This document shows positions 1,874 to 26,501 of a stretch of 64,000 nt of DNA, in pieces. Source of the DNA: an uncultured Candidatus Saccharibacteria bacterium (lineage in GTDB: Bacteria > Patescibacteriota > Minisyncoccia > Phycocordibacterales > UBA9973); NCBI GenBank assembly GCA_964432275.1, contig CAYSMH010000003.1, positions 6,718 to 70,717 on the forward strand, in the 5' to 3' direction. Made by a program: the position numbers and the translations under genes. Position 1 is the first letter of the stretch. Each line of letters opens with the position of its first letter. A model generated the notes under the pieces. That model searched no databases. It saw nothing but the letters and a program-made list of their open reading frames with translations, and was not told the DNA's origin.

Positions 1874-1882
1874 CAATCAAGC

Positions 1883-1912
1883 AAAAATCCCTATACAACA
1901 TAGGGATTTTTG
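1883..1912 (+). terminator. Rho-independent terminator (stem ATCCCTAT/ATAGGGAT followed by a T-run)
   Basis: Perfect 8-bp stem flanked by A/T runs, immediately after the tRNA. Confidence 0.6.
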
Positions 1913-2063
1913 CTATTGATGCCAATCATAATGGCGCGGACTGGTGGCCGAAGTGAGAACTGCAATTATCGCCCAGTATGAGCAAAACTTGCCGTGATAC
2001 TATCTTCGGCATTCGGAAGCCGAACTGCCGTCATATTCGCCAGAAGCCGTTTTGATCGTATCA

Positions 2064-2095
2064 CAAAAAAATAACCCCTGTAAAAAATACAGGGG
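2064..2095 (-). terminator. Rho-independent terminator for the minus-strand gene 2156..2770
   Basis: Stem CCCCTGTA/TACAGGGG, followed on the minus strand by TTATTTTTTT. Confidence 0.6.
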
Positions 2096-2155
2096 TGAAG
2101 ATTTGTAAAATCTTCAAAAACTTTTTCAATTCAATTTTATACCGAGAGCAAAGTA

Positions 2156-2770
2156 CTAAATTGCAAACATAGCAGCAGGATAGCATAAGTTGAAGTCATT
2201 ACTGGTGATATTAGTGTTAGCATGATCCCACCTATTAGCATTACCGCCACTCCAAGACAGGTAACGGACATAGAGTTCATTACGAGTTTCCTTGTAACAG
2301 CCCCGGTAAATGGTTCCCCAGAAAAGGATCTTTTTTGATTTCCAGTGTTCAGGAATGAATTCAGGGTGTTTCAACAGAAAGTCCAACACATTTGCGTTCA
2401 GTACTTTTTTGCCTCTCAATTCTCCTCGTAATGCCCAGCAATCGATATTGGCAATCTGCTGCTGACGTGCGAGATAGAGTACAACATTTGAAACGTCAAA
2501 CTTGATAGTGCCGCCTTTTTGGTGTTCCTCTAATTTCAAACCGGTTGGAATAAACGGTTCTGCATCGCAGTCAATATCATGTTTAGTACCCTTTATTTCG
2601 TGGGTGCCATGCATTACGCCGAGGACCAATTTCATCAGATTTTCGTCTTTTGAAAAGTCGTCCATGTTTTTTGGTTCCCAACCTGCTTTTGCGGCTGAAA
2701 TTGTAACTTCCCCCATAAGGGTACAGCCAAACTCATTTGATTTTGCCATTGTTTTAGATTTGTGACACAT
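2156..2770 (-). CDS. Hypothetical protein, island-1 cargo (likely true start at MAKSNEF, ~2749)
   Basis: 204-aa ORF, no recognised family. It has its own terminator and lies in an AT-rich island. Confidence 0.5.
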   Translation of the reverse strand: MCHKSKTMAKSNEFGCTLMGEVTISAAKAGWEPKNMDDFSKDENLMKLVLGVMHGTHEIKGTKHDIDCDAEPFIPTGLKLEEHQKGGTIKFDVSNVVLYLARQQQIANIDCWALRGELRGKKVLNANVLDFLLKHPEFIPEHWKSKKILFWGTIYRGCYKETRNELYVRYLSWSGGNANRWDHANTNITSNDFNLCYPAAMFAI

Positions 2771-3011
2771 CCGCTTTTGGCGGACTCATCGGTGAAAAAT
2801 GTATTAAAGAACTGCTATTATTATAGCACTACTCTACTATATAGTCAAGTATGTTCCCCACCTTCTTGATTTGTAATAGTAATTATATGTAACTTTAGTT
2901 TCCACCCACGGACGAACTCGTGCTATGTGTATTGAGAGGTGTCCGTAAGTTGGTTCGTTATATCAGTCACTGGAAGTATCAAAAAGGAGCTGAAAGTGCT
3001 AAAATCTCACC

Positions 3012-3770
3012 ATGCCAAATCCAAAAGATGAGAAAAACACCTTTTTTGACTTCAGTAAACTCCCGCCAGAAAAGGGTATTCTCTTATTCCCGCTTTCTAT
3101 CAGTCTTTTGCGAAACCGACAAAATGCCGATAATCTCATAAAAGATCTCTATAAGTTTTATCCGTCGAAAATGAGCAAACCTCTTATTGGTGTGAATTAT
3201 GTCTACAGCGACTTCCTGTATCTGTATAGCAACAAGCCTGCCCCTGAGCTGAAGCAATCTTTTATGAGCCAGACCATAAAGCATAAAAACGAAATTCAGA
3301 ACATCGTTAAGAAGAATCATGTTGATTTTCAGATTCAGCACGCATTCAGCTTTTCGTCATGGAATCAGTTGTATCTAGGCACAAGTGATTTTGAATTAGC
3401 CTTTGATAAAATCAAAAAACTCTACGCCGAAGATACTCTTTTTCAAAAATATGTAGAGGAAGACTGTGTGTCATATGGAAGAGATATGGAAGAAAATCAG
3501 ACCAACTTCTTTTTAGAAGAAGCGCTTATGTTTTATATGATTCAAAAGAACCAAGTAAGGCTCCCAAATGAGTACATTGAAAATCATCAACAGTGGGTAT
3601 TGCTTTGTTACCCAGGACGACCACTAAAAACAATTGTGTATCTAGCACAGCTTAATCCTTTGAAATTAGAATGGTCTGAAAATCCATATGAGAATGCATT
3701 TTACGATTTAGAATCAAAGCAGCTTATTGAGTACGATCGAGTTGATCTTGATACGTATACACTAAAGTAA
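3012..3770 (+). CDS. Hypothetical protein, island-1 cargo
   Basis: 252-aa ORF in a very AT-rich region, followed by a bidirectional terminator. I see only weak, unverified resemblance to cyclodipeptide synthases (see findings). Confidence 0.5.
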   Translation: MPNPKDEKNTFFDFSKLPPEKGILLFPLSISLLRNRQNADNLIKDLYKFYPSKMSKPLIGVNYVYSDFLYLYSNKPAPELKQSFMSQTIKHKNEIQNIVKKNHVDFQIQHAFSFSSWNQLYLGTSDFELAFDKIKKLYAEDTLFQKYVEEDCVSYGRDMEENQTNFFLEEALMFYMIQKNQVRLPNEYIENHQQWVLLCYPGRPLKTIVYLAQLNPLKLEWSENPYENAFYDLESKQLIEYDRVDLDTYTLK

Positions 3771-3804
3771 CCTTGGATTTATCTGGTTAGAATTGTTATG
3801 CAAT

Positions 3805-3832
3805 AAAAAACCACACATGTTGTGGTTTTTTA
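3805..3832. terminator. Bidirectional rho-independent terminator (AAAAAACCACA-CATGT-TGTGGTTTTTT)
   Basis: Perfect stem flanked by A and T runs. Confidence 0.6.
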
Positions 3833-3908
3833 TTGCTAGAAAAATCTGGGGCTTTTTGATCAAAAGTGCTAGGATACGCATATTGACCATAAATTACTAT
3901 TACTATCA

Positions 3909-6146
3909 ATGGCTGCCACAGAAAAAACTACAAAAAATGTTCGGCGAAGTAATGTATTTTCATACATAAAAACGACACACGATTTGCTCCAGCACAGAGA
4001 GTTATTTCAAAAAGTTTTAGCCATACTGGGCGATTTGAAATCTATTCATCCAAAGCATACCTATACCTATCCCACAGAGGAACGAAACGATGATCTGGTC
4101 CAGCTTTTAATCGATCTCAAAATCGCCTCATACGATTGGGAAGAAATGGAGAAGCAAACGCACCGCGCGGTCGGAAATCGAATAATCGAGTTCCGTTTTG
4201 ACGGGAGTAAAGTCATTGAACTTGTTGATCGCGTTTCAGGTAAGCATAGCCGTATACGGAAAGAAACTCTTGAACTTATTTCAAAAGATATTGGGGAGAG
4301 GTTTACGCTCAATAAGATTGTCGAGATATTTACCGACATTGGGACACCAGAAAGCATGTTTACTCAAGACACCAAATGGCGGGCTGTTTTTTATATCCTC
4401 TCCTTCTACACCACATCAAAAGATTCGAAAGATATTTTGATGTTCTTGAAAATACTTGAACGGTTCGTTCATCCACTTTCGTTTGGCGGCGATGAAACAA
4501 AAGCCAAAGAAACTGAAGAAAAATATAATAAATGGCTCAAGTATGACCGATTCGGAATAAAGACCGGCAAAGCGTTCATTGGTCCAACCGAAGAAGAAAT
4601 TGACCTTGGTATGGATGAGTGGACCAATTCGGATGGCGAAAGCTTCGAAACAAGAGGATTGACAATATCACCAGATGATGTCGCTCGATTGTGGGTTTTT
4701 TGGACTCAGGTAGTCTTAATTGTGAGTGCGTATGAAGGCAATCAGGGACTTGACCGCGATGAGCTTGAGAAGCTGTATCTGGAACTCATAGCGAAAGCGG
4801 AGCAATTGATTGATCGGGGCGATCTCGGGGATTTAAAACAATCCTACAAACGACCGTTCAACAGTCTTGTAACTGCCGAGATTGAAGCACGGTCAAAAGG
4901 ATTCAATAGCCCTTATGAACTAGCTGGTATTTTTCTGATTATAGTGGGTCAAATGCAACCAGATGCTACTGAAATTCAAAAAGAACGAGAGGAACATGCC
5001 GATCTGATCAAGCGTGTCGCCTCTGCAACTCGCGCTATTAGTGGAGAAAAAATCAATATTGCAAAATTATCCTACGAGCAAGCTCTTTTCATACTGAAAC
5101 TATATGTGACTTATATCTCGAACATATTTGAAGCGGTCGCAAGTGGAAACGTAAAAATTACTGACAGTGCCCTTAACGCAAAATATATCCTATTTACCGA
5201 CTCTGTTGAGCAAATCCTCAACAGGAATGATTTTGCCAAACTCAAAAAACAACAGCCTGATTATCTACCAGAACATCTCTATATTGGGGCGGATGAAATG
5301 GAAACATGGTTTGAGTATGGTGGGCAACCAGCCATCATGAGCTTTATCGGAGCAATCGAAAGCGCCTGGGTGAGAAGCGGGCAGCAATCATTTCCTATAT
5401 CTCTCGCTCTCAATAATCAACTAACGGAAACAGACGAGATCATTTCTCGGCACAAGAAATATAAGTCAGAAAAATGGAAACAGATCACTAAAAACCTCGA
5501 CGGCATGAAGGATGAGATGTTTGGTGGCAATAACAAAAAGGAGGAACCGAAAACTGAGCCCGATACACCTAAAAAAGTTATTCACGAACACCTCCATCGT
5601 TTCGAGAATAGCATCCAAGAAAAGGATATTGCATTCAACCACACGTTTTTTGAAGGCGACACTGAGGGAACGGTAGTTAAGAACAAAAAGAAGATTGTGC
5701 TTCCAAAGTTTCCTGCAACCCCCTACGAACAGATTTCGATCCGCTTTCTAACTGATCAAGATGTCCTAATCACAACCCCCAAGAAACAGGTTAGCTCAAA
5801 CTATGAAGCTCTTGGGTTTTCAAATGACAAAGAGAAGAAGCCTAACACTGCATGGGTACTCTTATTACTTCTGGCAAAGAATGGTGGCGAAATCAAAACA
5901 TCAAAGCCTATTCCTGATACGTTACGCCAACAGAAGCGCCAAATCTCTGATCAATTTAAGCTCATATTTAGAAACTCGCAGGACCCGTTTGAGGATTTTT
6001 CTGACACAAATTCTTATCGCTTAAAAATCAAGCTCGAAGTTGTTGGCAAAGATGAAGCCCCTGATCCGCTCGGTACCCAAGAATACCTCGATGAAACCAT
6101 GACCGAAGGAGCAGAAAACTACGGTCGTGATTTCACGCAATTTTAA
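3909..6146 (+). CDS. Large orphan hypothetical protein (745 aa), island-1 cargo
   Basis: Long uninterrupted ORF, Lys/Glu-rich, no recognisable catalytic motifs, followed by a terminator. Confidence 0.6.
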   Translation: MAATEKTTKNVRRSNVFSYIKTTHDLLQHRELFQKVLAILGDLKSIHPKHTYTYPTEERNDDLVQLLIDLKIASYDWEEMEKQTHRAVGNRIIEFRFDGSKVIELVDRVSGKHSRIRKETLELISKDIGERFTLNKIVEIFTDIGTPESMFTQDTKWRAVFYILSFYTTSKDSKDILMFLKILERFVHPLSFGGDETKAKETEEKYNKWLKYDRFGIKTGKAFIGPTEEEIDLGMDEWTNSDGESFETRGLTISPDDVARLWVFWTQVVLIVSAYEGNQGLDRDELEKLYLELIAKAEQLIDRGDLGDLKQSYKRPFNSLVTAEIEARSKGFNSPYELAGIFLIIVGQMQPDATEIQKEREEHADLIKRVASATRAISGEKINIAKLSYEQALFILKLYVTYISNIFEAVASGNVKITDSALNAKYILFTDSVEQILNRNDFAKLKKQQPDYLPEHLYIGADEMETWFEYGGQPAIMSFIGAIESAWVRSGQQSFPISLALNNQLTETDEIISRHKKYKSEKWKQITKNLDGMKDEMFGGNNKKEEPKTEPDTPKKVIHEHLHRFENSIQEKDIAFNHTFFEGDTEGTVVKNKKKIVLPKFPATPYEQISIRFLTDQDVLITTPKKQVSSNYEALGFSNDKEKKPNTAWVLLLLLAKNGGEIKTSKPIPDTLRQQKRQISDQFKLIFRNSQDPFEDFSDTNSYRLKIKLEVVGKDEAPDPLGTQEYLDETMTEGAENYGRDFTQF

Positions 6147-6165
6147 CTAAATACAGAAACCCAAT

Positions 6166-6194
6166 AAAACACTGGCTATAAGGCCAGTGTTTTT
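6166..6194 (+). terminator. Rho-independent terminator (AAAACACTGGC/GCCAGTGTTTT)
   Basis: 11-bp perfect stem followed by a T-run. Confidence 0.6.
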
Positions 6195-6267
6195 CGTTCA
6201 TCGTGATTTTTCACCCTATACATATGAGAGCACAAAACTCTCATATTACTCACTAGCAATTATTACT

Positions 6268-6549
6268 ATGACAAAAAAGAAAATGTCAGCGAGCGAGCAA
6301 AATCTGCTCAATGACCCGTCTGTTGTTTTTACAACGTATGACCTTGGTGTATCAGCCGCACTCCTCTGTGCGGATTTTGAGCTTCTGGCGGTCCAAAAAA
6401 CCAATCCGCGCAAAGCCCTGTTCGTTTTTAAGAAAGAAAAAGGTATCGAAGATGCAGCAAATAGCTACTTCTCCGATCGTCTCAAAGTCAAAGCACGGTC
6501 GTATTTTGACCATCTCAAGGCACTCAAGAACAAACTCTACAGCGAATAG
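6268..6549 (+). CDS. Small hypothetical protein (start moved downstream of the terminator to MTKKKMSAS)
   Basis: The ORF-track start at 6187 lies upstream of/within the terminator region. An in-frame ATG at 6268 follows it. Confidence 0.4.
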   Translation: MTKKKMSASEQNLLNDPSVVFTTYDLGVSAALLCADFELLAVQKTNPRKALFVFKKEKGIEDAANSYFSDRLKVKARSYFDHLKALKNKLYSE

Positions 6550-6552
6550 TTC

Positions 6553-6732
6553 ATGGTTCTTTCAGACGAGAAAATCAAAGAGTTCCAAGAGTTATACAAA
6601 GAACACTTTGGAGTAGAGATCAGCAAAGCGGATGCCTATGAAAATGGCACAAAGCTTTTGCGACTGATCTCACTGATTTATCGTCCAATCGAACAAGATG
6701 AAGATGAGCTCAATGAGATTAACACCCGCTAA
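6553..6732 (+). CDS. Small hypothetical protein (59 aa, acidic C-terminus)
   Basis: Short ORF packed tightly between neighbouring genes. It is below the ORF-track length cutoff. Confidence 0.25.
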   Translation: MVLSDEKIKEFQELYKEHFGVEISKADAYENGTKLLRLISLIYRPIEQDEDELNEINTR

Positions 6733-6737
6733 ATCCA

Positions 6738-7082
6738 ATGACAAAAATCAACCGCCAAAAAATCTGCGGTTCGATGAGCTACACCATCAACGAGATGTCA
6801 GAGTATTTGGGTATCAACAAAAAAACTTGCCTACGCTGGATCGAGAACGGACTGCCGATCGTTCCTGGCAGCAAGAAACCAATTCTTATGCTCGGCTCAC
6901 AGATCAAGGAGTTTTTGCGAAAGAAAGACTCAAAGAAGAAAGTTGAGCTTAAGAGAAACGAGTTTTATTGCCTCAGATGCAAAGCCCCTCGGAGAGCAAA
7001 ACGTGGCTCAATCAAGCGATTGGCGCATCACAAAACGAGCATTTGTAGTGTCTGTAGCGGGAAAATGAGTCGGACAATCTAA
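6738..7082 (+). CDS. HTH DNA-binding protein with C-terminal CxxC...CxxC zinc ribbon
   Basis: The N-terminal segment MSEYLGINKKTCLRWIENGLP resembles excisionase/MerR-type HTH. The C-terminal CLRC...CSVCSG fits a zinc ribbon. Confidence 0.5.
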   Translation: MTKINRQKICGSMSYTINEMSEYLGINKKTCLRWIENGLPIVPGSKKPILMLGSQIKEFLRKKDSKKKVELKRNEFYCLRCKAPRRAKRGSIKRLAHHKTSICSVCSGKMSRTI

Positions 7083-7202
7083 CTCTCCCAAAAGGACTAA
7101 ATGATATTCTCGATACCAACTTAAATGTCCATTATGACCCTCGTTATGTTCCTACATATTAACGACAAAAATTATCCATTATAAACACTAAAAAGTTACC
7201 CT

Positions 7203-7436
7203 ATGACTACGCCACAAATCGAAGAAAAAATAACTCTCAACATCAGCGCTAGAAATCTACCATTTGTCATATCGGCACTTGAGTCAGAGATAGAGCATCT
7301 AAACAAAATCCAAAAGGCATGCGTCAAGAAAAAGCAGTTCCAAGCAGCAAACGATTTACTGCCCAACATCATGTTACTGGAGAATATGGTGAAATACCTG
7401 AAACCTTTCAAGCCCACCCCTTTACCATTCAAATAA
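7203..7436 (+). CDS. Small hypothetical protein
   Basis: 77-aa ORF immediately upstream of the integrase. Confidence 0.3.
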   Translation: MTTPQIEEKITLNISARNLPFVISALESEIEHLNKIQKACVKKKQFQAANDLLPNIMLLENMVKYLKPFKPTPLPFK

Positions 7437-7443
7437 CCCATCC

Positions 7444-8559
7444 ATGACAAACACTATGTATGAAAACGAAATAGCTAAAAGAGCTTTTTTCGAGCACTTA
7501 AAAGGGGCTAAAGGATTTTCGAGAAGTTCGATCCGTACCCACGCAGAGGCGGTCAATCAATGGGAAATCTTTACAAAAAATGATTACTTTTCTACCTACG
7601 ATAAATCCAAAGCTACCTCTTTTACTGACTGGCTTGCTAGTCGACCAGCTAAAACAAAATCTGGAACGATTTCACTGGTCACGCAGTACAACTACCTACG
7701 TCGTGTAAAAAAGTTCTTTACATGGCTATGCGACCAATCAAAGTATAGAAGTAAGATTGTAAAAAGCGATGTTGAGTACTTGCGCCTTTCAAAAGCCGAT
7801 GCTCAAATTGCACGTTCGGGGACGACAAAGAAAATGCCAACCTTCGAGGACGTTAAAAAGATAATCGAGAGTATTGGTGAAAAGTCTGAAATCGACATGC
7901 GTGACAGAGCGCTCATCTCCTTTGCGCTCATCACGGGTGGCCGCATTTCTGCCATAGTCTCGCTCAAGATGAAGAACTTTGACAAAGAGCTCAAGCAGAT
8001 CGATCAAAACCCAGGAGACGGCGTAAAGACCAAGAACTCAAAAAGAATACTCACCACCTTTTTCCCAATCGGTTGGGACGAACCTGAAAAATACTTCATG
8101 GAATGGTATGACTATCTCATTTCAAAGGACTTTCAATCAGATGACCCTATCTTCCCAGTGACCGCTGGTTCATTCGTAAGCGGAGAACATAGCTACAGCA
8201 AGGAAACCGTTGGACAGGATGCCTGGAGCGGCACAGGAGCCGCACGCAAGATATTTGAGAAGCGATGCAAAAATGCTGGACTACCATATTTCCACCCGCA
8301 CTCATTCCGTCATTTGGTTGTGAACATCCTTAGCAAGAAACGCCTCACCGAAGAAGAGAAACGTGCAATCAGCATGAACCTCGGACATGAAAATGTTGGT
8401 ACAACGTTTGGATCATATGGCTACGGAAGTATGAGCAATGAAAGCGCGGTGAAGATTGTTCAAAAATTGAAAGACGTACAGGATGGCACCAGTAACAGCC
8501 TTATGTTATCAGAGCAGGAAAAAGCTCTGTTGGAGAGACTATTGAAGCGTATTTCATAA
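7444..8559 (+). CDS. Tyrosine-type site-specific recombinase/integrase
   Basis: C-terminal catalytic motifs HPHSFRHLVVN (H-x-x-R) and LGHENVGTTFGSYGY (catalytic Tyr), plus an N-terminal SAM-like domain. Confidence 0.8.
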   Translation: MTNTMYENEIAKRAFFEHLKGAKGFSRSSIRTHAEAVNQWEIFTKNDYFSTYDKSKATSFTDWLASRPAKTKSGTISLVTQYNYLRRVKKFFTWLCDQSKYRSKIVKSDVEYLRLSKADAQIARSGTTKKMPTFEDVKKIIESIGEKSEIDMRDRALISFALITGGRISAIVSLKMKNFDKELKQIDQNPGDGVKTKNSKRILTTFFPIGWDEPEKYFMEWYDYLISKDFQSDDPIFPVTAGSFVSGEHSYSKETVGQDAWSGTGAARKIFEKRCKNAGLPYFHPHSFRHLVVNILSKKRLTEEEKRAISMNLGHENVGTTFGSYGYGSMSNESAVKIVQKLKDVQDGTSNSLMLSEQEKALLERLLKRIS

Positions 8560-8596
8560 ACTTGCAATGTAAAGAATAGTAAAGTATCATAAAGAT

Positions 8597-8770
8597 ATGG
8601 AAAAAGATTTTTACACAGCCCGAGATTTGGCCGATAAGCTTGGTCTAAACATTATGACGATCTATCGATGGATCGATGCGAAAAAGCTCAAGGCATACAA
8701 ACTTGGCAAGGAGTTTCGCATTGAGAAAAAGGACTTTGATGCTTTCTTGAAAAAAGCGAGTACCAAATAA
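8597..8770 (+). CDS. Excisionase-family HTH DNA-binding protein (57 aa)
   Basis: MEKDFYTARDLADKLGLNIMTIYRWIDAKKLKAYKLGKEFRIEKKDF matches the helix-turn-helix excisionase family. It sits between the two recombinase genes. Confidence 0.6.
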   Translation: MEKDFYTARDLADKLGLNIMTIYRWIDAKKLKAYKLGKEFRIEKKDFDAFLKKASTK

Positions 8771-8771
8771 T

Positions 8772-10424
8772 ATGAATAATGAGTATTCAAAAATAAAATA
8801 CTTCACTTACGCTCGCAAGTCGCAGGAGGGTGAGGAAAAACAAGTGCAATCAATCCCCGATCAATTGCGCGAGGCTGATGTTGTTGCAAAGCGCTATAAC
8901 ATAAAAGTTGTAGATGTTCTGACCGAAGAAGGTTCTGCAAAAGAGCCTGGCAAGCGCCCCATCTTTGAGGAGATGCTTGAGCGTATTAAAAATGGTGAGG
9001 CAAATGGAATTATTTGTTGGAACCTCAATCGTCTCTCTCGAAACCCAGTCGACAGCGGCAAGCTCCAATGGATGCTCCAACAAGGGCATATCCAATCAAT
9101 ACTCACACCGTCGCGGGAATACAAGCCCAATGACAATGCAATTATTTTTAGTGTGGAAAGTGGTGGCGCAAACCAATTTATTCTTGACCTCAAGGTTGGA
9201 GTAAATCGAGGACTCACAAGTAAGGTGAAGAAGGGGCAGGCGCCTGTCCGCGCACCGCTTGGGTACTTAAATACCAAGCACGAAGCTCGAGGTGAAAACT
9301 ACATTATCAAAGACCCTGAACGATTCGATCTTGTCAAAAAAACATGGACGCTGATGCTCACTGGTGAATACTCTATTCCCAAGCTTCTCAAAATTGTAAA
9401 CGATGATTGGGGTATGCGTACGCGCAAGTTCAAACATCATGGCGGTGGACCGATCAACAAAAGCACGATGTACAACATCTTTACCAATATTTTCTATACT
9501 GGTCTCTTTTTGTATCGAGGAGAAATAAGCAATGGTGTACACGAACCCATGATCACACTCGAGGAGTTTGATAAGGTACAGGTGTTACTTGGCCGATACG
9601 GGCGACCACGATCCAAGACCCATTCATTTGCCTATACGGGCACCATGGTATGTGCAGAATGCGGCAGCGGCATCACTGCGTGCGAAAAGACGAAGTTAGT
9701 GAAAGCTACTGGAAAACTCAAGAGTTACACCTTCTATTACTGTTCCCATCGCAAGAATGGGGTGAAAAACAAGTGTACCCAACGAGCGTACATCCCTTTG
9801 GAAACGATGGAAGAAATGATAAAGGCAGAGATCGATAAGTATACGATTTCTGAAAAGTTCCGTGATTGGGCTCTCCGTATTCTCCAAGAAGAGCACTCAG
9901 AGGAGGCCAAGGAACGTGAGGCGATCTACAGCTCCCAACTGGCCTCCCTTGAGGGTACCCAAAGGGAGCTAGATGCGCTTATAACGATGCGTATGCGTGA
10001 TTTCATAAATGATGAGCAATACGTATCACGAAAGAAAGGCCTCACGGATAAAATCGTCATTCTGACACAGAAAGTCACCCAAACGCAGAAACGAGCACAC
10101 AACTGGATGGAACACACTGAAGAGGCCTTTAACTTTGCTCATACAGCAAAGGCAAGGTTTGATAACCCTAAAACAACCCTAGATGAGAAAAAATCCATCT
10201 TTATGTCCCTCGGTTGGAACTACGAGGTGAAAGACGAAAAACTCTTTATAAATCAGTGTAAGTACCTAGAACCAATAGCAGAAAAACGAAAAGCCGTTGA
10301 AAGTGAAATAAGTCGGTTGGAACTGGGAAAAACCTTTGCCTTAAAAGGACAAAACACCCATTTAGGGGTGTCTTGTCCAGTTCTGCGCGAACGACGGGAC
10401 TTGAACCCGCAACCTCCCGCGTGA
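8772..10424 (+). CDS. Large serine recombinase (resolvase/invertase N-terminal domain, recombinase domain, zinc ribbon)
   Basis: Catalytic YARKS serine motif, SRN motif, a Cys cluster CAECGSG...YYCSHRKNG, and a coiled-coil C-terminal region. The last 39 nt overlap the convergent tRNA-Asp. Confidence 0.85.
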   Translation: MNNEYSKIKYFTYARKSQEGEEKQVQSIPDQLREADVVAKRYNIKVVDVLTEEGSAKEPGKRPIFEEMLERIKNGEANGIICWNLNRLSRNPVDSGKLQWMLQQGHIQSILTPSREYKPNDNAIIFSVESGGANQFILDLKVGVNRGLTSKVKKGQAPVRAPLGYLNTKHEARGENYIIKDPERFDLVKKTWTLMLTGEYSIPKLLKIVNDDWGMRTRKFKHHGGGPINKSTMYNIFTNIFYTGLFLYRGEISNGVHEPMITLEEFDKVQVLLGRYGRPRSKTHSFAYTGTMVCAECGSGITACEKTKLVKATGKLKSYTFYYCSHRKNGVKNKCTQRAYIPLETMEEMIKAEIDKYTISEKFRDWALRILQEEHSEEAKEREAIYSSQLASLEGTQRELDALITMRMRDFINDEQYVSRKKGLTDKIVILTQKVTQTQKRAHNWMEHTEEAFNFAHTAKARFDNPKTTLDEKKSIFMSLGWNYEVKDEKLFINQCKYLEPIAEKRKAVESEISRLELGKTFALKGQNTHLGVSCPVLRERRDLNPQPPA

Positions 10425-10459
10425 CAGGCGGGTGCTCTAACCAGTTGAGCTACGTCCGC
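10386..10459 (-). tRNA. tRNA-Asp (anticodon GTC)
   Basis: The reverse complement folds as GCGGACG acceptor, D-arm GCTC/GAGC, anticodon stem CCCGC/GCGGG with loop CTGTCAC, and T-arm GCGGG-TTCAAGT-CCCGT. Confidence 0.85.
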
Positions 10460-10487
10460 AAATTGTTAACAAAGCCTTTCGGCCGGG

Positions 10488-10561
10488 TGTCGACGGGTGG
10501 GCACGATCCACCGACCTTAGCGTTATGAATGCTACGCTCTAACCAGCTGAGCTACGCCGAC
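10488..10561 (-). tRNA. tRNA with CAT anticodon (elongator Met or Ile2/lysidine type), atypical T-loop
   Basis: The reverse complement has acceptor GTCGGCG/CGTCGAC, D-arm GCTC-AGCTGGTTA-GAGC and anticodon loop TTCATAA. The T-arm GGTGG-ATCGTGC-CCACC is non-canonical and there is an A31-C39 mismatch. Confidence 0.6.
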
Positions 10562-10634
10562 AATCTTGCAATGACAGGGCTCAAAAAATATAGCATATAT
10601 CCACGAAAATTCAACACGTGCTATACTGTCAGTA

Positions 10635-14452: not shown

Positions 14453-16258
14453 ATGGAAATACGAAACATCGCAATCATCGCACACGTGGACCACGGCAAG
14501 ACAACCCTTACTGACAAAATGCTCGCATTTTGCGGCATTGTGCTCGATGGTGCATCTATGGACTCCAACGCACTTGAACAAGAGCGCGGCATCACTATCT
14601 ATGCGAAAAACACGGCAGTCATGTACAAAGGTACCAAGATCAACATCGTCGACACTCCAGGTCACGCCGACTTTGGATCTGAAGTAGAGCGTGTGTTGCG
14701 AAGTATCGACTCAGTGCTCCTGATCGTCGATGCTCAAGAAGGCCCAATGCCACAAACACGTTTCGTATTGAAAAAATCTCTTGAGCTCGGGCTCAAGCCA
14801 ATCGTCGTGATCAACAAGATCGACAAACCAGGTGCAGACTGTGCACATACTCATGATGCAGTGTTTGAGCTCTTTATGGAGCTCGGTGCTAGTGATGAAC
14901 AACTCGACTTCACCACTGTGTATGCTATTGGTCGTGAAGGTGTCGCAATGAAAAATGAAACTGACGAACGCAAAGATCTTGAACCACTCTTTGAGACAAT
15001 ACTTGAAAAGGTACCGGTTGCACTTAACGACACTACCAAGCAGTTTCGTATGCAGGCGTTCAACCTTGCGTATGACAACTTCCTCGGACGTCTTGCTGCA
15101 GGACGTGTGTATGAAGGTGTCGCAAAAGCAGGAGATACTGTCTATATCAAAACTGATGGACGTGAGACGCGTACAGCAAAGATCGTCAAACTCTTTACAT
15201 TCATGGGAATGAAGCGTGAAGAAGTGTCTGAAGCAGTAGCAGGAGACATTGTCATGATCGCAGGTATCCCTGACATTTTTATTGGAGAGACTATCTCTAC
15301 TAACAAAGATGCGGAGCTTCTCCCTGCTATCACTATCGATGAGCCGACTATCGTGCTTGACTTCTTGGTCAACAACTCTCCATTTGCTGGAAAAGAAGGA
15401 AAATTTGTCACTTCTCGCCAGATCCGTGAACGACTTGAGCGTGAGCTTGAGACCAACGTCGGACTCAAAGTAAATTTTGATGCAAACCCTGATCGTATTG
15501 CTGAAGGCTTCACTGTCTATGGTCGCGGAGAAATGCACATCGCAGTATTGCTCGAGACTATGCGCCGTGAAGGATATGAAATCCAAGTATCACAGCCACA
15601 AGTTATCATCAAAGAAATCGATGGCGTGAAGAGTGAGCCGTTCGAAGAAGTCACTATCGATGCACCCGCAGAACACCAAGGCGTCATTATCGAGAAGCTC
15701 GGGATGCGAGGATTTATCATGGGCGACATGAATTTGAAAAATAACACCGTCCGTATGGTCTTTACTGGACCTACTCGTGGACTCCTCGGCTACCGCAACC
15801 AGTTCCTCGTAGACACCAAAGGTGAGGGTATTATGAGTGCTCGTGTGCTCGGGTTCCGTCCATACGCAGGCGAGATCACTCGTCGCCAGGTAGGTAGTAT
15901 GATCAGTATGGAGAATGGCAAGGCGCTCGCATTTGCACTCTGGGGTCTCCAAGACCGCGGTACCCTCTATATCGGTCCCCAGACAGAAGTCTACGAAGGT
16001 ATGGTGATCGGCAACACTAGTAAAGGTGAAGAAATGAAAGTAAACCCTACGAAAGGGAAACAGCTCACCAACATGCGTGCATCAGGTACTGATGAAGCGG
16101 TGACGATTATTCCACCGTGGACAATGACGATAGAGCGTGGGCTCGAAGTCATGGTAGATGATGAATTCCTAGAAGTGACACCGCTATCTGTACGTCTTCG
16201 CAAACAGTATCTCAATGATACTGAACGAACAAAAGCTCGACGACCGAAGAACCAGTAA
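14453..16258 (+). CDS. typA: Translational GTPase TypA/BipA
   Basis: [14 protein letters not shown] and NKID G-motifs, with EF-G-like domains and a BipA-specific C-terminus. Start taken at [18 protein letters not shown]. Confidence 0.85.
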
Positions 16259-16261
16259 ATA

Positions 16262-16300
16262 AAAAAGCCCTCAAGATAGTAGTCTTGGGGGACTTTATTT
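16262..16300. terminator. Bidirectional rho-independent terminator (CCCTCAAGA/TCTTGGGGG)
   Basis: Hairpin between convergent genes, flanked by A and T runs. Confidence 0.5.
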
Positions 16301-16626
16301 TATGGCAAGATCCATTTTTTGCCTTTAAGAAAATAGTTATACTGATTATCTCCTAGAGTGACTGTTAGGTAATGACTATAAGCACTCAGTGAAGGCGCGG
16401 GATCTAGGGAGTAGGTACAAACTATGTTATGTTCAGCAGCAAAATTATCTACAACCACAGTTGCTGGTAAGGAACCGTAGTTGAGTTTATTGAGTAACTG
16501 CACAGATTCTTTCTTTGAATCCCTAATCTTTTTAAAGATAAGAAAAAGGAGATAAAATCCTATACATAGGAATGCCCAAAATAATAGGTTACTAAAGATT
16601 TTCATGATTTTTGTTTTTTGCAACAT
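16300..16626 (-). CDS. Small membrane-anchored hypothetical protein
   Basis: N-terminal TM segment. Weak support. Confidence 0.3.
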   Translation of the reverse strand: MLQKTKIMKIFSNLLFWAFLCIGFYLLFLIFKKIRDSKKESVQLLNKLNYGSLPATVVVDNFAAEHNIVCTYSLDPAPSLSAYSHYLTVTLGDNQYNYFLKGKKWILP

Positions 16627-16655
16627 TACAACTTTTCTGATAGAATGTCAACCAC

Positions 16656-17363
16656 ATGAACGAAAAGCGACTCAAAGAATTTTGGGATAAGGAATACAAG
16701 GATCCGGGGATGTTTGCACTCTCTGATGAAGTGTCTACAGACCTCGTCAAATGCGTCCGATGGATGATGAAGGAATACGGCAAGGATGTATTTCGTCCCG
16801 ATGTTACGGTACTGGATGCGGGGTGTGGCAACGGTCGCAACGTGCTGTGGCTCAACGACATGTTTCGCGTATATGGGTACGGCTACGACATTTCAGGGGA
16901 AGCTATCGCTCAAGCGCAAAAGCAGGCAGACAAACAACAGTGGGGTAGCAAGCTTACATTTTCTGTGCGATCGCTCGATGAGCTTATTCCTCTTGAAAAT
17001 GAGTCTGTAGATCTGGTGATCGATGCAATGTCGTCACACTTTTTAAAAAACGTAGAACGTGCGAGATTTATCTCAGAAGTTGCACGAGTGCTGAAACCGC
17101 AAGGACTATTATTTTTCAAATCATTTTACGCAGAGCGCGATAGCCATACCAAAGAGCTACTTGAGAAACATGGTGCTGGTGAAGAAAACGCATACATTCA
17201 CCCCAAGCTCAAAGTGTACGAGTACGTTTGGACCGATGCGGCACTTGCAGCATCGTTTGATGAACAGTTTATATTGATGAAGAAAGAGCTCTCAGGCAAG
17301 CACCATATCAAAGGCAAACCTGCCAAGCGGCGCTCTGTCGTGTGTTATTTTGAAAAAAAATAA
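16656..17363 (+). CDS. Class I SAM-dependent methyltransferase
   Basis: Motif I VLDAGCGNGRN and a D/E acidic loop. Confidence 0.65.
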   Translation: MNEKRLKEFWDKEYKDPGMFALSDEVSTDLVKCVRWMMKEYGKDVFRPDVTVLDAGCGNGRNVLWLNDMFRVYGYGYDISGEAIAQAQKQADKQQWGSKLTFSVRSLDELIPLENESVDLVIDAMSSHFLKNVERARFISEVARVLKPQGLLFFKSFYAERDSHTKELLEKHGAGEENAYIHPKLKVYEYVWTDAALAASFDEQFILMKKELSGKHHIKGKPAKRRSVVCYFEKK

Positions 17364-21139: not shown

Positions 21140-21213
21140 TGCGGAATCGTCTAATGGTAGGACGCATCCCTCTGGAGGATGTTATCTTGGTTCGAGTCCA
21201 GGTTCCGCAGCCA
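21140..21213 (+). tRNA. tRNA-Gln (anticodon CTG), U1-A72, 3-bp D-stem, CCA encoded
   Basis: Acceptor TGCGGAA/TTCCGCA, anticodon stem CATCC/GGATG with loop CTCTGGA, T-arm CTTGG-TTCGAGT-CCAGG, discriminator G plus CCA. The U1-A72 pair and short D-stem are typical of tRNA-Gln. Confidence 0.8.
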
Positions 21214-21360
21214 TTGACAGATAGCACGAGACGTGTTGAAATAACGATTCTCGAGCTAGCTCAATATACTATACTGAAATTGCTTACCCGCTGAGTGCGA
21301 TAACCAGAACAAAAGACATCTAATTTTAGGTGTCTTTTGTATTTACGATATCTCATCATT

Positions 21361-21759
21361 TTAGGATAGTTCATTTAAAAACTTTTCCGCAGTATCTTTG
21401 GTAGGAGCAATATCGTATATCTCTTCTGGTGTTAAAATCAACAAACCTTTTACTACTCTATCTGGCAACTGTTCTTTTATCCATGAGGTTGCATTATCAA
21501 AATATTCTCCATCTGTTATATATTCAACATTTCCTTTTATCTGATACCCCATCATTTTTTTCCAGCATACAAGAGAAACCGAGGGGTTAAGAAGAATATT
21601 TGCTAGTGTTTTATCAAGAAAATAGTTTATAAGCCAAATTTTCCCTTCCACAATCCTTATTGAAGATACAGGAACAACGTTTATGTTTGTGCCATATGTT
21701 GCAAGTGCTTTTGATTCGGCAGATAAAATAAATTTTTCAATATCTTCATCAATTTTCAT
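21361..21759 (-). CDS. Pyridoxamine 5'-phosphate oxidase-like FMN-binding split-barrel protein
   Basis: Size and sequence pattern of the PNPOx-like / general stress protein 26 family. Confidence 0.5.
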   Translation of the reverse strand: MKIDEDIEKFILSAESKALATYGTNINVVPVSSIRIVEGKIWLINYFLDKTLANILLNPSVSLVCWKKMMGYQIKGNVEYITDGEYFDNATSWIKEQLPDRVVKGLLILTPEEIYDIAPTKDTAEKFLNELS

Positions 21760-21908
21760 ATGTTTTTATTCTTATTTATATTTATAAATAGTACTCCTAA
21801 ATAAGGATAAGTCGATATTTCACACCTAAAATTAGAACCTTAATTCTAGTTACCTTTTAAGAATAATTGAAGAGTAGGCTATTACGATATTTAAGTATTT
21901 AAAATACC

Positions 21909-21937
21909 TTGACAATACCCCCCTGGGGGTATATACT
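21909..21937 (+). promoter_or_regulatory. Sigma70-like promoter (TTGACA-17-TATACT) with CsoR-type operator palindrome ATACCCCCCTGGGGGTAT in the spacer
   Basis: Perfect -35 hexamer, 17-nt spacer consisting exactly of an 18-bp GC-rich perfect inverted repeat, -10 TATACT, and the csoR ATG 7 nt downstream. Confidence 0.7.
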
Positions 21938-21943
21938 CGGTAC

Positions 21944-22207
21944 ATGTCTACGAATAAAGAAAAAATGATACGCCGGTTAAAAATAATTGAAGGTCAAGTA
22001 AGGGGTCTTCAAGACATGATTGAAAAAGGTACATATTGTATCGACGTCATCACGCAGGCATCCGCGATAAAGCAGGGAATTTCCAATGTTGAGGATACTC
22101 TTCTTGAGCATCATTTGGGCCATTGCTTAATTAACCAAATTAAGGATGGAAAAGCTGATAAAGCTACACAAGAAATCATCCAAGTTTATCGTTTAAAGCG
22201 CAAGTAA
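21944..22207 (+). CDS. csoR: CsoR/RcnR-family metal-sensing transcriptional repressor
   Basis: 87 aa. Conserved Cys (YCIDV) and His/Cys (EHHLGHC) metal ligands in the W-X-Y-Z arrangement, upstream of copA. Confidence 0.75.
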   Translation: MSTNKEKMIRRLKIIEGQVRGLQDMIEKGTYCIDVITQASAIKQGISNVEDTLLEHHLGHCLINQIKDGKADKATQEIIQVYRLKRK

Positions 22208-22229
22208 TTTAATAGAAATAATTATTTAT

Positions 22230-22793
22230 ATGAAAAAAATATCATTATATTTCGCAATTAGCATAGCAATTGTATCCGGGGTTCTTGGTCTTGTTATTGG
22301 GTATGCCCTTACTCCTGAATATAGAACTTCAATGTATGAAAAAAACACAATGGATTTAGGACGTGCTGACCGTACGTTTGATTTGCGTTATATTAACGCA
22401 ATGATTGCGCATCATCGGGGCGCAATGCTACTTGCTGAGCAACTCCAAAAAAATACTGATAGACCTGAACTACAAACGCTCGCAGCTGATATATTGAAAG
22501 GAGAGCCTGTGCTTATTGAAGAGCTTTATACATGGAAAAAAGAGTGGTACGGAGATAGTAGAAAAGTGCGTGATCCTATTGTTGCAAACCTTGGTCCAAA
22601 AGATGAAAAATTTGACCTTAGATTTTTAAACGCAATTATTGCACACCATGAAGCTGGTATTGAGATGACTCAAGAAACACGTATTAAATCAAGTAGGGCT
22701 GAAATTCTTAATAATGCAGATGGAGTAGAAGCATTTCTCAAAGGAGGTATAGAAACACTTAAAGGTCTTAGGTCAACATGGTATTCAATTTAA
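22230..22793 (+). CDS. DUF305 domain protein (two DUF305 repeats), membrane-anchored
   Basis: Two copies of the DxRFLxAMIxHHxGAIxM motif. The family is often linked to copper resistance loci. Confidence 0.6.
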
Positions 22794-22807
22794 CTCATTA
22801 CAAAGAT

Positions 22808-25066
22808 ATGAAAAAAGATGTCTATACAATAAAAGGGATGCACTGTGCAAGTTGTGCTTCCATAATTACGAAAACTGTTTCAAAGGTTCCAGGTGTGCGT
22901 GATATATCGGTGAATTTTGCGAGTGAAAAAGCGAATCTTTCGTTTGATCCGTCTGCTACCTCTATTGAAGTAATGAATACAGAGCTTGAGAAGTTAGGAT
23001 ATATGATTATGTCTACTGGTGAAGAAGAATCTGGAGTACATGATCATGCTAAAACTTCTGACAGCGAACTTGTGCTATTACAACAGAAAACACATTTTGT
23101 ACTACCAATCACTGGCGTAATATTTATACTTATGTTATGGGATATTCTCGCACGGACATTTGTTCGTGTTCCAAATCTTCCTATACCTATGGATCTTTTC
23201 AATATAATAAACATGGTACTTGCAACAATAGTATTGTTTTGGGTTGGAAAACCATTTTTAAAAGGTGTTACAAGATTCCTTCGATATAAGGTTGCTAATA
23301 TGGATACCCTTATTGGTATTGGTACGCTCACTGCATATTTATACAGTGTTGTTATAACGCTATTACCATCTATTCGCGACCTATTGCGCGTACCAGAATT
23401 CACCTATTTTGATGTGACTATTGTCGTGATTGGATTTATTACACTTGGAAAATACTTGGAGGCTCGATCAAAAAAGAAAACAGGGGATGCGATTGAAGCT
23501 CTACTCACGCTTCAGGCAAAAACCGCCCTTATTATTCGTCAGGGAGAAGAAGTTGAAATTCCAATCACTGAAGTGGTGCATGGGGATCTTATTGTTGTAA
23601 AGCCCGCCGGTAGAATCCCAGTTGATGGTGTTGTTGCTGAGGGGTCTTCATATGTGGATGAATCTATGATTACTGGCGAGCCAATTCCTGTGGAAAAAGG
23701 GGAGGGAGATACTGTGGTTGCAGGTACGATGAATACTACAGGGTCATTTACATTCAAGGCAACAAAAGTAGGAGCAGAAACTATGCTTGCGAATATTATC
23801 AAAATGGTAGAAGAGGCGCAGGGAAGTCGTGCGCCAATTCAGGCGCTCGCCGATAAAATCTCAAGCGTGTTTGTTCCTATTGTTCTAGTCATTGCCTTTC
23901 TTTCACTAGTTGCATGGCTAACTATTGGCTCAACCTATCTTGGCTTCTCACAAGCACTTTCACTTGGAATACTTTCGTTTGTAAGTGTGCTCGTAATTGC
24001 GTGTCCATGTGCGCTTGGACTTGCTACGCCGACAGCAATTATCGTTGGGGTCGGTAAAGGGGCAAGGAATGGCATTCTTATCAAAGACGCTGCTACGTTG
24101 CAGAAACTTCACGAAGTTACCACGGTTGTTGTTGATAAGACAGGGACTATTACAAAAGGAAAACCAGAGCTAGTGTCTATAAAAAATCTTTCTGATCGGT
24201 CAGATGAAGAGATTATTGCACTACTTGCTGCGCTTGAGAAAAAATCTGAACATCCTATTGCACATGCAATTGTTTCGTATGCGAAAGAAACAGATATACA
24301 AATTCCTCCAGTTGGATCATTTCAGATTGTAAAAGGTGAAGGTATTCGTGGTTCAATACTCGGAATAGAATATTTTGCTGGTAATATCCGGCTTATGGAA
24401 AACCTCAAGCACGCTATAGACATATCAATGATTGAGGCAGAGACAAAAACTGGAAAAACACCAGTGCTACTTGCTACGAAAGAAAAAATACTTGCAATCG
24501 TTATGGTTGCAGATGCGGTAAAGCCTGAAGCAAAAAATGCTATACAGGAGCTTCATAAGAAAGGAATTAAGGTTTACATGTTAACTGGAGATAATATAAA
24601 TACTGCGCAGTTTATTGCTTCTTCTGTGGGAATAGATGAGGTCATTGCCGAAGTAACACCTGAAGATAAACTCAATACAGTCAAAAAATTACAATCATCG
24701 GGAGAAGTAGTCGCAATGGCTGGAGATGGAGTCAATGACGCTCCAGCTCTCGCTCAAGCAGATGTCGGTATTGCTATGGCAACCGGGACAGATGTTGCTA
24801 TAGAGAGCGCGGGAATCACACTCTTGCACGGTGATATTACAAAACTTGTTAAGGCAATCAATCTTTCAAAGATTACGATGCGTGGGATTAAGCAAAATTT
24901 ATTCTGGGCATTTATATATAATATTGTAGGGATACCACTTGCGGCAGGTGTATTTTATCCACTATTTGGATGGCTGCTCAATCCGATATTTGCAGGGCTT
25001 GCAATGGCATTCTCGAGCGTGTCGGTGGTAGGAAACTCATTGCGGTTAAAAGCTAAAAAACTATAA
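22808..25066 (+). CDS. copA: Copper-translocating P1B-type ATPase CopA with N-terminal HMA domain
   Basis: GMHCASCAS (CxxC HMA), TGEP, CPC ([11 protein letters not shown]), DKTGT and [10 protein letters not shown] motifs. Start placed at [10 protein letters not shown] to avoid overlap with the upstream gene. Confidence 0.9.
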
Positions 25067-25068
25067 GT

Positions 25069-26109: not shown

Positions 26110-26111
26110 CT

Positions 26112-26501
26112 ATGAAAAAAAATATTCTTGCAATCTCTATAGGTATCGTAATTATTGGGTTCGGAATACTCGTAGCGGTAAATAGTGCGCCAAAAGAAGA
26201 AGAGGTGCTTATAAATGTTGTTACTGTAGTTGATGGAAAGCAAATTATTGATTTACGGGCAAAAGGAGGGTTTACTCCTCGTAGTATTGATGCAAAAGCT
26301 GGAATTCCTACAGTGCTTCGTGTTACTACAAAAGGTACATTTGATTGTTCTTCTTCCGTACGAATTCCATCTCTGAACATATCACAAAATTTGCCACAAA
26401 CAGGTGTTACTGAACTTGATCTCGGGATCCAACAGGCGGGGGTACTAAAGGGTAGCTGTGGAATGGGTATGTATCCTTTTGAAATTAATTTCCAAGCGTA
26501 G
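26112..26501 (+). CDS. Secreted cupredoxin-like small protein (putative copper-binding)
   Basis: Signal anchor, beta-rich ~100-aa domain with Cys/Met cluster (CSSS...GSCGMGMY). Confidence 0.35.
   Translation: MKKNILAISIGIVIIGFGILVAVNSAPKEEEVLINVVTVVDGKQIIDLRAKGGFTPRSIDAKAGIPTVLRVTTKGTFDCSSSVRIPSLNISQNLPQTGVTELDLGIQQAGVLKGSCGMGMYPFEINFQA

Follow-up and report, generated by a model that had tools for sequence, protein, structure and literature searches.

We analysed a stretch of 64,000 nucleotides (the window; contig CAYSMH010000003.1, positions 6,718 to 70,717) from an uncultured Candidatus Saccharibacteria bacterium, a member of the Patescibacteria or Candidate Phyla Radiation (CPR), in which a run of unfamiliar genes lies between two convergent tRNA genes. 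The left one is a tRNA-Met(CAT) gene on the plus strand (1803–1874; ARAGORN, Rfam), initiator-like in that a C1/A72 mismatch can be read in its sequence; the right one is a tRNA-Asp(GTC) gene on the minus strand (10385–10459; ARAGORN; Rfam, 71 bits). Between them we found, in order, p204 (204 aa, 2156–2770, minus strand) and, all on the plus strand, p252 (252 aa, 3012–3770), p745 (745 aa, 3909–6146), a DUF5659 protein (6283–6549), p59 (59 aa, 6553–6732), p114 (114 aa, 6738–7082), p77 (77 aa, 7203–7436), a tyrosine recombinase (TyrInt, 371 aa, 7444–8559), a 57-aa helix-turn-helix (HTH) protein (8597–8770) and a large serine recombinase (LSR, 550 aa, 8772–10424). A first-pass annotation, made from the letters alone, had named the two tRNA genes and a set of open reading frames, all of which exist as it described them (ARAGORN, Rfam, the open-reading-frame list and Pfam); a second tRNA-Met gene on the minus strand (10485–10562; ARAGORN, with which Rfam agrees) was absent from it. 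Here we examine whether the interval is one mobile element or two, and which of the two recombinases integrates it.

The host protein next to the island (285 aa) was used for a genome scan, which located one relative, L001 (88% identity in this protein), in an uncultured Candidatus Saccharibacteria metagenome-assembled genome, where tRNA-Met and the convergent tRNA-Asp lie 56 nt apart with nothing between them. Whole-locus blastn showed that the window and L001 are syntenic at 80–89% identity, and that the synteny stops at window position 1941 and restarts at 10385. In a three-way alignment of L001 with both window junctions, attB was ATAATG-GCGCG-AACGACGGG, attL was ATAATG-GCGCG-GACTGGTGG and attR was AGTTCT-GCGCG-AACGACGGG. 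These junctions give the element a length of 8,446 bp (1939–10384), with GCGCG as the sole common sequence; this core is present twice in the window, at 1934–1938 and at 10385–10389. The empty tRNA-Met/tRNA-Asp junction that the first-pass annotation had proposed to look for was thus present in a relative, and it allowed attL and attR to be defined.

The same alignment corrected the proposal that the island is bounded by both tRNA genes (1874–10460). Its true ends are 1939 and 10384/10389, tRNA-Asp belongs to the host, and the insertion lies at the last bases of tRNA-Asp only. The tRNA-Met gene, which adjoins the empty site of L001 too, is the left neighbour of the insertion site and lies outside the element. 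The host spacer (1875–1933) contains a native bidirectional terminator hairpin (1880–1914), detected by an inverted-repeat and terminator scan and kept in the empty site of L001; this hairpin is host DNA from between the convergent tRNA-Met and tRNA-Asp genes that remained on the attL side after the insertion. At attL (1932–1938) the displaced 3' tail of tRNA-Asp has stayed behind as TGGCGCG (reverse complement CGCGCCA, encoded CCA included), and the attR core GCGCG consists of the discriminator and the last acceptor-stem bases of tRNA-Asp. As to composition, which had been described as dropping sharply, the drop in GC content is real (0.480 in the left flank, 0.415 in the island, 0.385 in its part 1939–3896, 0.448 in the right flank) but modest, host windows of 8.4 kb spanning 0.405–0.473.

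An exact copy of p745 was found on two other assemblies, L002 and L003. L002 carries the whole element, identical at 8446/8446 bases, and L003 carries its first 4,838 bases with zero mismatches. In L003 the insertion is at the tRNA-Asp tail of a third host, behind a different host spacer. In L002 it is at a non-tRNA site, the left neighbour being a trmD gene 74% identical to the trmD of the window, and the junctions have only GC (2 bp) in common with attP. There the element interrupts the reading frame of a secreted (signal-peptide) protein, and its removal with a 2-bp overlap restores the frame (...VGVPHFAQAA/EGWTVRTDIGSS...). Together with the empty site in L001, identical copies in other hosts and at other sites bear out the earlier claim of a mobile integrative island. 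To judge from these sequence identities, the element has clearly been transferred very recently between different Saccharibacteria-like hosts. Exact-protein look-ups with the host flank proteins gave no record. When the off-target site of L002 (right flank, 9785–9830) was compared by eye with the right attP arm of the element (1939–1965), GGTGG was seen at the same crossover offset and AGTGAGAAC two bases nearer the crossover than in the arm; this resemblance may explain the use of the pseudo-site.

The LSR contains Resolvase (PF00239, 6e-14), Recombinase (PF07508, 2.5e-6) and Zn_ribbon_recom (PF13408, 5.8e-9) domains. Its residues Y13, R15, K16 and S17 are invariant in 33 homologues, and the Arg-x-Ser nucleophile motif is present. 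The protein matches the A118 and SPbeta integrases, and its residues 233–411 align to the C-terminal domain of the A118 integrase (2e-11). The LSR reading frame crosses attR, so that its last 11 codons are antisense tRNA-Asp, and the length of the protein depends on the context: at tRNA-Asp it has 550 aa and ends in the tail ERRDLNPQPPA, in L002 it has 539 aa, and for the circle 558 aa are predicted. The C-terminal tail is evidently dispensable. The attP site, ...GTCCAGTTCT-GCGCG-GACTGGTGGCC..., lies inside the last LSR codons; the junction predicted for the circular form reads ...CCAGTTCTGCGCGGACTGGTGG... and the repaired tRNA-Asp ...ATAATGGCGCGAACGACGGG.... The right attP arm, which is the left end of the element (1939–1965, plus strand, GACTGGTGGCCGAAGTGAGAACTGC), is identical at the attL of L002 and L003, and related arms occur at the left ends of L018, L020–22, L028, L079 and L090–92 and beside the LSR in a circular-form contig, L031.

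Eighty loci were obtained when metagenomes were searched with an alignment of LSR homologues, and 79 of them were analysed for an adjoining tRNA gene. In 62 of these 79, the LSR gene runs at its 3' end into a convergent tRNA gene and overlaps it (tRNA-Asp in 28, His in 14, Ser in 10, Trp in 3, Met, Arg and Glu in 2 each, Asn in 1), and four further loci have an intron-containing tRNA-Asp missed by ARAGORN. In the remainder, the contig ended too early in eight, one was the circular form, one was L002 and three were unresolved. At an identity threshold of at least 67%, seven of eight LSR clusters have a single tRNA species; the cluster of the window comprises 17 tRNA-Asp loci, L002 and two contig ends. 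The left attP arm is conserved up to the same GCGCG across 23 tRNA-Asp loci, and at ten loci the right arm, GCGCG-GACTAGTGGACGAAGTgAGAACTG, was found again at the far end, giving element sizes of 7.3–11.5 kb. Because the crossover is short, attP lies inside the last LSR codons and approximately 66 related LSR loci abut a convergent tRNA gene, the comparative evidence points to the 550-aa LSR as the integrase of the element.

In the four loci with an interrupted gene (L034, 7838–8035, minus strand; also L014, L030 and L037), the tRNA-Asp just downstream of the LSR is split in the anticodon loop by an insert of approximately 200 nt, and this is the reason why ARAGORN missed it. The insert showed a match to RF00028, the group I intron model, with a score (31.7 bits; E = 1.6e-6) under the gathering threshold.

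A serine recombinase cuts the two strands with a 2-bp stagger, whereas a tyrosine integrase exchanges 6–8 bp and, as a rule, leaves part of the tRNA gene duplicated. In the window, attL, attR and attB have 5 bp in common, and in L002 they have 2 bp (GC), the cleavage positions being predicted only, and no direct repeat of tRNA ends of 12 nt or more that could serve as att sites was found in the window. As the comparison of junctions and the conservation across the family show, the LSR recombines attP with the last bases of tRNA-Asp and needs just 2–5 bp of identity for this, so that the tRNA body is left untouched. We also considered that the roles might be reversed, TyrInt integrating into the tRNA gene and the LSR being a resolvase or invertase. 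Such an assignment would suit the excisionase-like HTH gene directly after TyrInt, and tRNA 3' ends are named as classic targets of tyrosine integrases in a passage of PMC12884075 that refers to Williams 2002. It is extremely unlikely, as the junctions show 2–5 bp of identity and no duplicated tRNA segment, attP is inside the LSR gene, the identity of the tRNA tracks the LSR clade, and TyrInt has no arm-binding domain. Moreover, relatives that have only an LSR share the insertion nucleotide, the GCGCG position and the attP arms with the element; since most LSR relatives are without a tyrosine recombinase, the tyrosine enzyme is dispensable for this integration.

The contig L031 (14.4 kb; 14,441 bp) consists of element DNA only. 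In it, the LSR is followed by an intact attP at about position 5533, and both contig ends are in register within the p59 gene, which is consistent with a free circle or a tandem copy of a related element; for the element of the window itself, no circular form was seen. No exact repeat was found as a terminal overlap of L031, and the permuted p59 gene is the sole support for circularity.

Several points weigh against the reading of a single element integrated by its LSR. The core GCGCG is made up of the dinucleotides GC and CG only, both palindromic, and offers no non-palindromic central dinucleotide; in the LSRs that have been studied, a palindromic central dinucleotide removes orientation control, and yet the orientation of the LSR relative to the tRNA gene is constant in 66 loci. 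The empty site of L002 is a reconstruction rather than an observation. Finally, the roles of the element genes rest on comparative sequence evidence, recombination not having been seen directly. With these points taken into account, we consider it likely that the interval is a single 8,446-bp integrative element of Candidatus Saccharibacteria, not two elements, and that it was integrated at tRNA-Asp by the LSR.

The 57-aa HTH protein is of the HTH_17 or excisionase type (PF12728, 2e-13; TIGR01764, 2e-13), and its stop codon lies 1 nt before the LSR start. A homologue is found directly upstream of the LSR in L041, a locus with a 393-aa protein in the variable gene position described below and without TyrInt, and for this reason we assigned the HTH protein to the LSR. 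Excision by an LSR of the integrase type needs a separate directionality factor. With its gene coupled in translation to the LSR gene, the HTH protein is a candidate for this function, and it is probably the directionality factor or a regulator of the LSR.

On the tRNA strand, a hairpin with a 13-bp stem followed by UUUU starts 6 nt past the 3' end of tRNA-Asp. This predicted intrinsic terminator (10343–10378, minus strand) is antisense within the C-terminal LSR codons and the left attP arm. Its RNA fold has an energy of -26.1 kcal/mol (z = -4.1), and compensatory changes were observed in all five core pairs across 19 loci, suggesting that the hairpin is a terminator supplied by the element for tRNA-Asp. 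By inserting, the element would swap the 3' trailer of the tRNA and the native hairpin (1880–1914) for its own terminator. The 3' end of tRNA-Asp is ...CGTTCGC-G-CCA in L001 and ...CGTTCGC-G-CAG in the window, the tRNA body being intact. The neighbouring tRNA-Met is likewise without an encoded CCA, as read from the sequence; CCA would therefore be added enzymatically in this host, and the loss of the encoded CCA of tRNA-Asp should be tolerated.

The usual gene order in the related loci is variable cargo, DUF5659, p59, one gene in a variable position that we call the slot, and the LSR abutting the tRNA gene. The DUF5659 protein (PF18903, 2.5e-10) is a core gene of the family, which most of the 80 related loci have upstream of the LSR, and p59 is a small core protein with tblastn matches beside DUF5659 in most of them. 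In a census of 93 LSR loci, the slot was occupied by a Toprim DNA primase (phrog_47, 5e-24) in 24, by a protein of approximately 396 aa without family match in 18, by an HTH_36 replication-initiator-like protein in four and by a tyrosine-recombinase block in 11; nothing was recognised in 36 loci, many of them on short contigs. The tyrosine block never occurred together with the primase, the 396-aa protein or the HTH_36 gene. No recognisable primase, helicase or Rep gene was found in the element of the window with Pfam, PHROGs and NCBIfam, and the tyrosine block takes the position that is occupied by a primase or Rep-like gene in LSR-only relatives. The 396-aa protein (e.g. L009, 613–1803; L012, 8100–9308; 16 other loci) gave no match in Pfam or PHROGs, and it may be an undescribed replication initiator.

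The block consists of p114, a conserved non-coding motif, p77 and TyrInt, followed by an HTH protein. p114, with HTH_17 (PF12728, 2e-6) and a zinc ribbon, is the first gene and was present in every TyrInt context examined at 53–78% identity; p77 stands alongside TyrInt in L004, L008, L010, L013, L090 and L092. TyrInt carries PF00589 (3e-15) and the SAM-like N-domain PF02899, and it has more than 120 homologues at 63–100% identity, all of approximately 370 aa. The residues R167, K197, H286, R289, H315 and Y325 are invariant in 35 homologues, which identifies TyrInt as a catalytically intact enzyme at the level of its sequence. Its AlphaFold2 (AF2) model (pLDDT 67.5) had XerA as the top fold match (1.4e-7); next came IntI, Cre, XerH and Brujita Int. 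The protein is without an arm-binding domain, as the SAM-like core-binding domain begins at residue 14 and two-domain enzymes match it over the full length. Its best NCBIfam Xer score was 57 bits against a cut-off of 220, which sets it apart from chromosomal XerC, XerD and XerA.

Ten TyrInt contexts, a small sample picked from long contigs, were examined (the window, L004, L008, L010/L092, L013, L090, L094, L096 and L097). In all ten, the tyrosine block lies inside an LSR-bounded element with the LSR at the right end, and in L090 it lies between mapped LSR-type attL and attR sites. The partner LSRs were 76–79% identical to that of the window at tRNA-Asp, 41% and 37% at tRNA-Gln, 24% at tRNA-His and 23% at tRNA-Asn. 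p114, TyrInt and the HTH protein hold 53–85% identity (TyrInt itself 65–85%) while the partner LSRs diverge. The block is thus paired with at least four LSR clades aimed at different tRNAs, and since the partner LSR and the tRNA vary while the block stays similar, the chromosomal target follows the LSR and not TyrInt. In L004, the partner LSR by tRNA-Gln (41% identical; 15094–16803) is split into three reading frames, and this copy may be decaying and immobilised.

The presence of two recombinase classes had been taken as a sign of a nested or tandem element, i.e. of a tyrosine-integrase element (p114-p77-TyrInt-HTH) in or beside an independent LSR element, each moving by itself. The contexts do not bear this out: the block is internal to an LSR-bounded element in 10 of 10 and never alone or without an LSR. 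The pairing is kept over the whole range of TyrInt identity, 100% to 65%, and with four LSR clades while the tRNA changes, which is unlike a recent nesting. Nor were direct repeats or tRNA fragments found beside the block. That the block is present in only 11 of the 93 LSR loci does suggest that it was acquired as a unit; it also takes the place of another module at the same position, and it has an Xis-like HTH protein of its own. On balance, we regard a composite of two self-moving elements as very unlikely.

The non-coding motif within the block, AAAAGGACTAaATGATA-N12-ACTTAAATGTCC (7090–7130, plus strand), is present in one copy per element. In the form AAAAGGACTATATGATA-N12-ACTTAAATGTCC, it directly follows the p114 stop codon, with 0–2 mismatches in all TyrInt loci, even where TyrInt is down to 65% identity. 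Its conservation exceeds that of the flanking genes, and it lies directly upstream of the p77-TyrInt operon in the window, L004, L008, L010, L013, L090, L094, L096 and L097. By its conservation and position, it is a candidate operator, promoter or tyrosine-recombinase site. As a sigma-70 promoter it was rejected, no good -35/-10 spacing being seen by eye and the scan not listing it. As a viral att site it was rejected too: 59 exact 16-mer matches were found in IMG/VR, none of them with the second half, and they were judged to be chance matches. A motif-like site in L023 lacked the second half.

The first-pass annotation had also proposed an element in which one enzyme integrates and the other resolves or inverts. 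Its first part agrees with the LSR being the integrase; a resolving role of TyrInt is compatible with the data and goes no further than inference. The active site is intact, the build is Xer/Cre-like and a single site lies beside the gene, and for these reasons we tentatively favour, at clearly less than even odds, TyrInt being a recombinase at the internal motif. Acting on this single site, it would resolve the element where it is present as a multimer, tandem copy or cointegrate. A tandem remnant compatible with such a role was observed in L092, where two attL-like right-arm sites at 60 and 840, 780 bp apart at the left end of a TyrInt-type element, suggest that part of a previous insertion at this tRNA-Asp has been left. 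Speaking against the resolution role, the motif is not an obvious core site (two arms with a 6–8 bp spacer) and could be a promoter or operator, and TyrInt-type elements have no recognisable replication gene, so that multimers should be rare.

Another possibility is that TyrInt is a DNA-binding regulator like MrpR/YopR of SPbeta or SroF of phi3T, which would bind the motif and control the excision of the LSR element. YopR (8bj6) and SroF (9rd5) were indeed among the TyrInt fold matches, SPbeta is likewise integrated by an LSR and has such a repressor (PMC10516654), and the motif is single-copy and exactly at the upstream edge of the TyrInt operon. MrpR, however, has lost most of its catalytic residues (PMC10516654), and R, K, HxxR, H and Y are invariant in the 35 TyrInt homologues. 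This invariance argues for retained catalysis, and we regard a purely regulatory TyrInt as unlikely.

TyrInt might also be a second integrase, giving access to an alternative landing site on the chromosome or to another mobile element or phage for hitch-hiking. A non-replicating entrant would gain from a second integration route, and the block is exclusive with replication genes; arm-less simple tyrosine recombinases can integrate, as does the Brujita integrase found among the fold matches. Yet the motif is intact and internal, the element ends are of the LSR type in 10 of 10 contexts, and the off-target copy of L002 used the same LSR attP crossover. In addition, the bipartite motif was found in no viral contig of IMG/VR, and no element bounded by motif halves was found. 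A second integration route is accordingly quite improbable. Part of the probability we leave with none of these three roles.

It is also conceivable that the two recombinases are an obligate pair that works as one system found in CPR bacteria only. In it, the LSR clade would have diversified to target the 3' ends of at least nine tRNA species, attP and the replacement terminator would lie in the LSR coding sequence, and the TyrInt block would substitute for the replication module and maintain or transfer a non-replicating element through recombination at the internal site. Taken as a whole this proposal is doubtful; if true, it would be a life-cycle solution undescribed for integrative elements and a source of att/integrase pairs for engineering Patescibacteria.

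The cargo of the element remained without assignment. As the first-pass annotation had stated, the proteins are orphans: p204, p252 and p745 gave no match in Pfam, PHROGs, PADLOC (a defence set) or NCBIfam, and p204 and p252 gave no sequence match to PDB structures. p204 occurs only in copies of this same element. The left 2 kb, with p204 and the low-GC p252, is specific to this element among the related loci. In PADLOC, only the two HTH proteins resembled mad1, through the HTH alone, and no defence system was found among the cargo.

p745 is a large modular protein typical of CPR elements. A profile search placed it in a large modular superfamily with 3,560 relatives, and it is a hallmark protein of the family. 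Its AF2 model (pLDDT 78.8) had no fold match in the PDB or BFVD. A few relatives of p745 showed similarity to AbiJ_NTD3 below the threshold, a weak lead towards a role in a conflict system. Compared with homologues of approximately 820 aa, p745 is without some 75 N-terminal residues, the tblastn alignment starting at homologue residue 73. The break in homology (3793–3969 / 3897) coincides with the junction of the low-GC cargo, after a 27-nt hairpin (3789–3847). The position of this 5' break points to a cargo-exchange breakpoint. In relatives the cargo varies between elements; restriction-modification systems (type III and Dcm/Vsr), copper resistance, a protein with a beta-lactamase fold and an NYN nuclease are among it, and the integration targets of the family include tRNA-Asp, His, Ser, Gln and others.

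We also asked whether the island is an autonomous integrative element at all or could be a phage satellite or the remains of a prophage. It is small and tRNA-adjoining, has integrase and excisionase-like genes, and matches PHROG integrase families. No capsid, terminase, portal or packaging match was obtained in PHROGs, though, and nothing closely related was present in IMG/VR or INPHARED: scans of IMG/VR with the LSR alone and with the LSR alignment gave nothing close (one locus at 35% identity), and in INPHARED there was no match to TyrInt, the LSR being at most 26% identical to phage LSRs. A phage origin of this kind is therefore highly improbable.

In its resolvase, recombinase and zinc-ribbon domains and its Arg/Ser motif, the LSR of the window is like the integrases of A118, phiC31, Bxb1 and SPbeta, the Ccr proteins of SCCmec, TnpX of Tn4451 and TndX of Tn5397. 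Such systems likewise have junction identity of the 2-bp type, an int gene beside attP and a small partner protein beside int, and TnpX and TndX occasionally insert at secondary sites, as was seen in L002. Characterised LSRs mostly target protein genes. The LSR of the window differs from them in its low identity to phage LSRs (at most 26%) and in the tRNA 3' termini that are targeted throughout its clade, and its attP differs in lying in the last LSR codons with an antisense tRNA terminator and in having a core of palindromic dinucleotides only. SSV-type archaeal integrases share the attP crossover within the integrase reading frame and an integration that alters the 3' end of the integrase gene. 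Their integrase is a tyrosine recombinase whose gene is split in two, whereas the enzyme of the window is a serine recombinase in which only a dispensable tail is swapped (539, 550 or 558 aa).

In lifestyle, the element is closest to the tycheposons of Prochlorococcus, which are likewise small cargo elements by tRNA genes, in streamlined genomes without conjugation systems (bioRxiv 10.1101/2020.12.28.424599). Their site-specific integrase is a tyrosine recombinase in 910 of 937 and an LSR in the rest, and they carry a replication module (same source). The LSR-only relatives share this layout, having a primase or Rep-like gene. The family of the window differs in that the LSR is the rule and TyrInt is an extra internal module replacing the replication gene; the element itself differs in having 5 bp at the far end and no partial tRNA duplication, and no common proteins were shown.

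TyrInt is similar to XerA, XerH, IntI, Cre of Cre/loxP and plasmid resolvases in having two domains, no arm-binding domain and the full catalytic set. In Cre/loxP and XerS/dif, one site lies beside the recombinase gene, and the candidate site of TyrInt is placed in the same way. Unlike the Xer/Cre types, TyrInt is on a mobile element, not on the chromosome, and is always paired with an LSR (10 of 10 contexts). Among the simple recombinases taken for this comparison was the 'Cand' subgroup (Smyshlyaev et al. 2021; PMC8138268). MrpR/YopR of SPbeta and SroF of phi3T likewise combine a tyrosine-recombinase fold with an LSR-integrated element. In MrpR, the Arg, His, Arg and Trp/His of the active site are missing, and the protein is inactive as a recombinase (PMC10516654), whereas TyrInt has kept the whole catalytic set.

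The mobile elements of the CPR are almost uncharacterised. In the literature, not all journals being covered, we found no description of this CPR element family, of DUF5659 or of a conserved pair of tyrosine and serine recombinases in one small element. With ends defined to the base pair and attP, attB and integrase identified, the element offers starting material for an integration tool in organisms whose manipulation is very difficult. Across the family, serine recombinases act systematically on tRNA 3' ends, a niche usually credited to tyrosine integrases, and the family shows how a tRNA can be kept functional with just 2–5 bp of homology, via a trailer and terminator of the element's own. 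The constant pairing of a catalytically intact Xer-like enzyme with interchangeable LSRs, exclusive with replication genes, raises the question of what use a second recombinase is in a small element.

A second insertion relative to L001 was observed further along the window (21212–33681; 12.5 kb, GC content 0.392), directly 3' of a tRNA-Gln gene (21140–21213). Its genes include DUF305, a copper P-type ATPase (22778–25066), a DsbD_2/HMA protein (25069–26109) and a multicopper oxidase (31496–32731). It also carries another LSR of 440 aa (26959–28281, minus strand); since this LSR lies in the middle of the island rather than at its edge, the insertion is possibly two elements in tandem.

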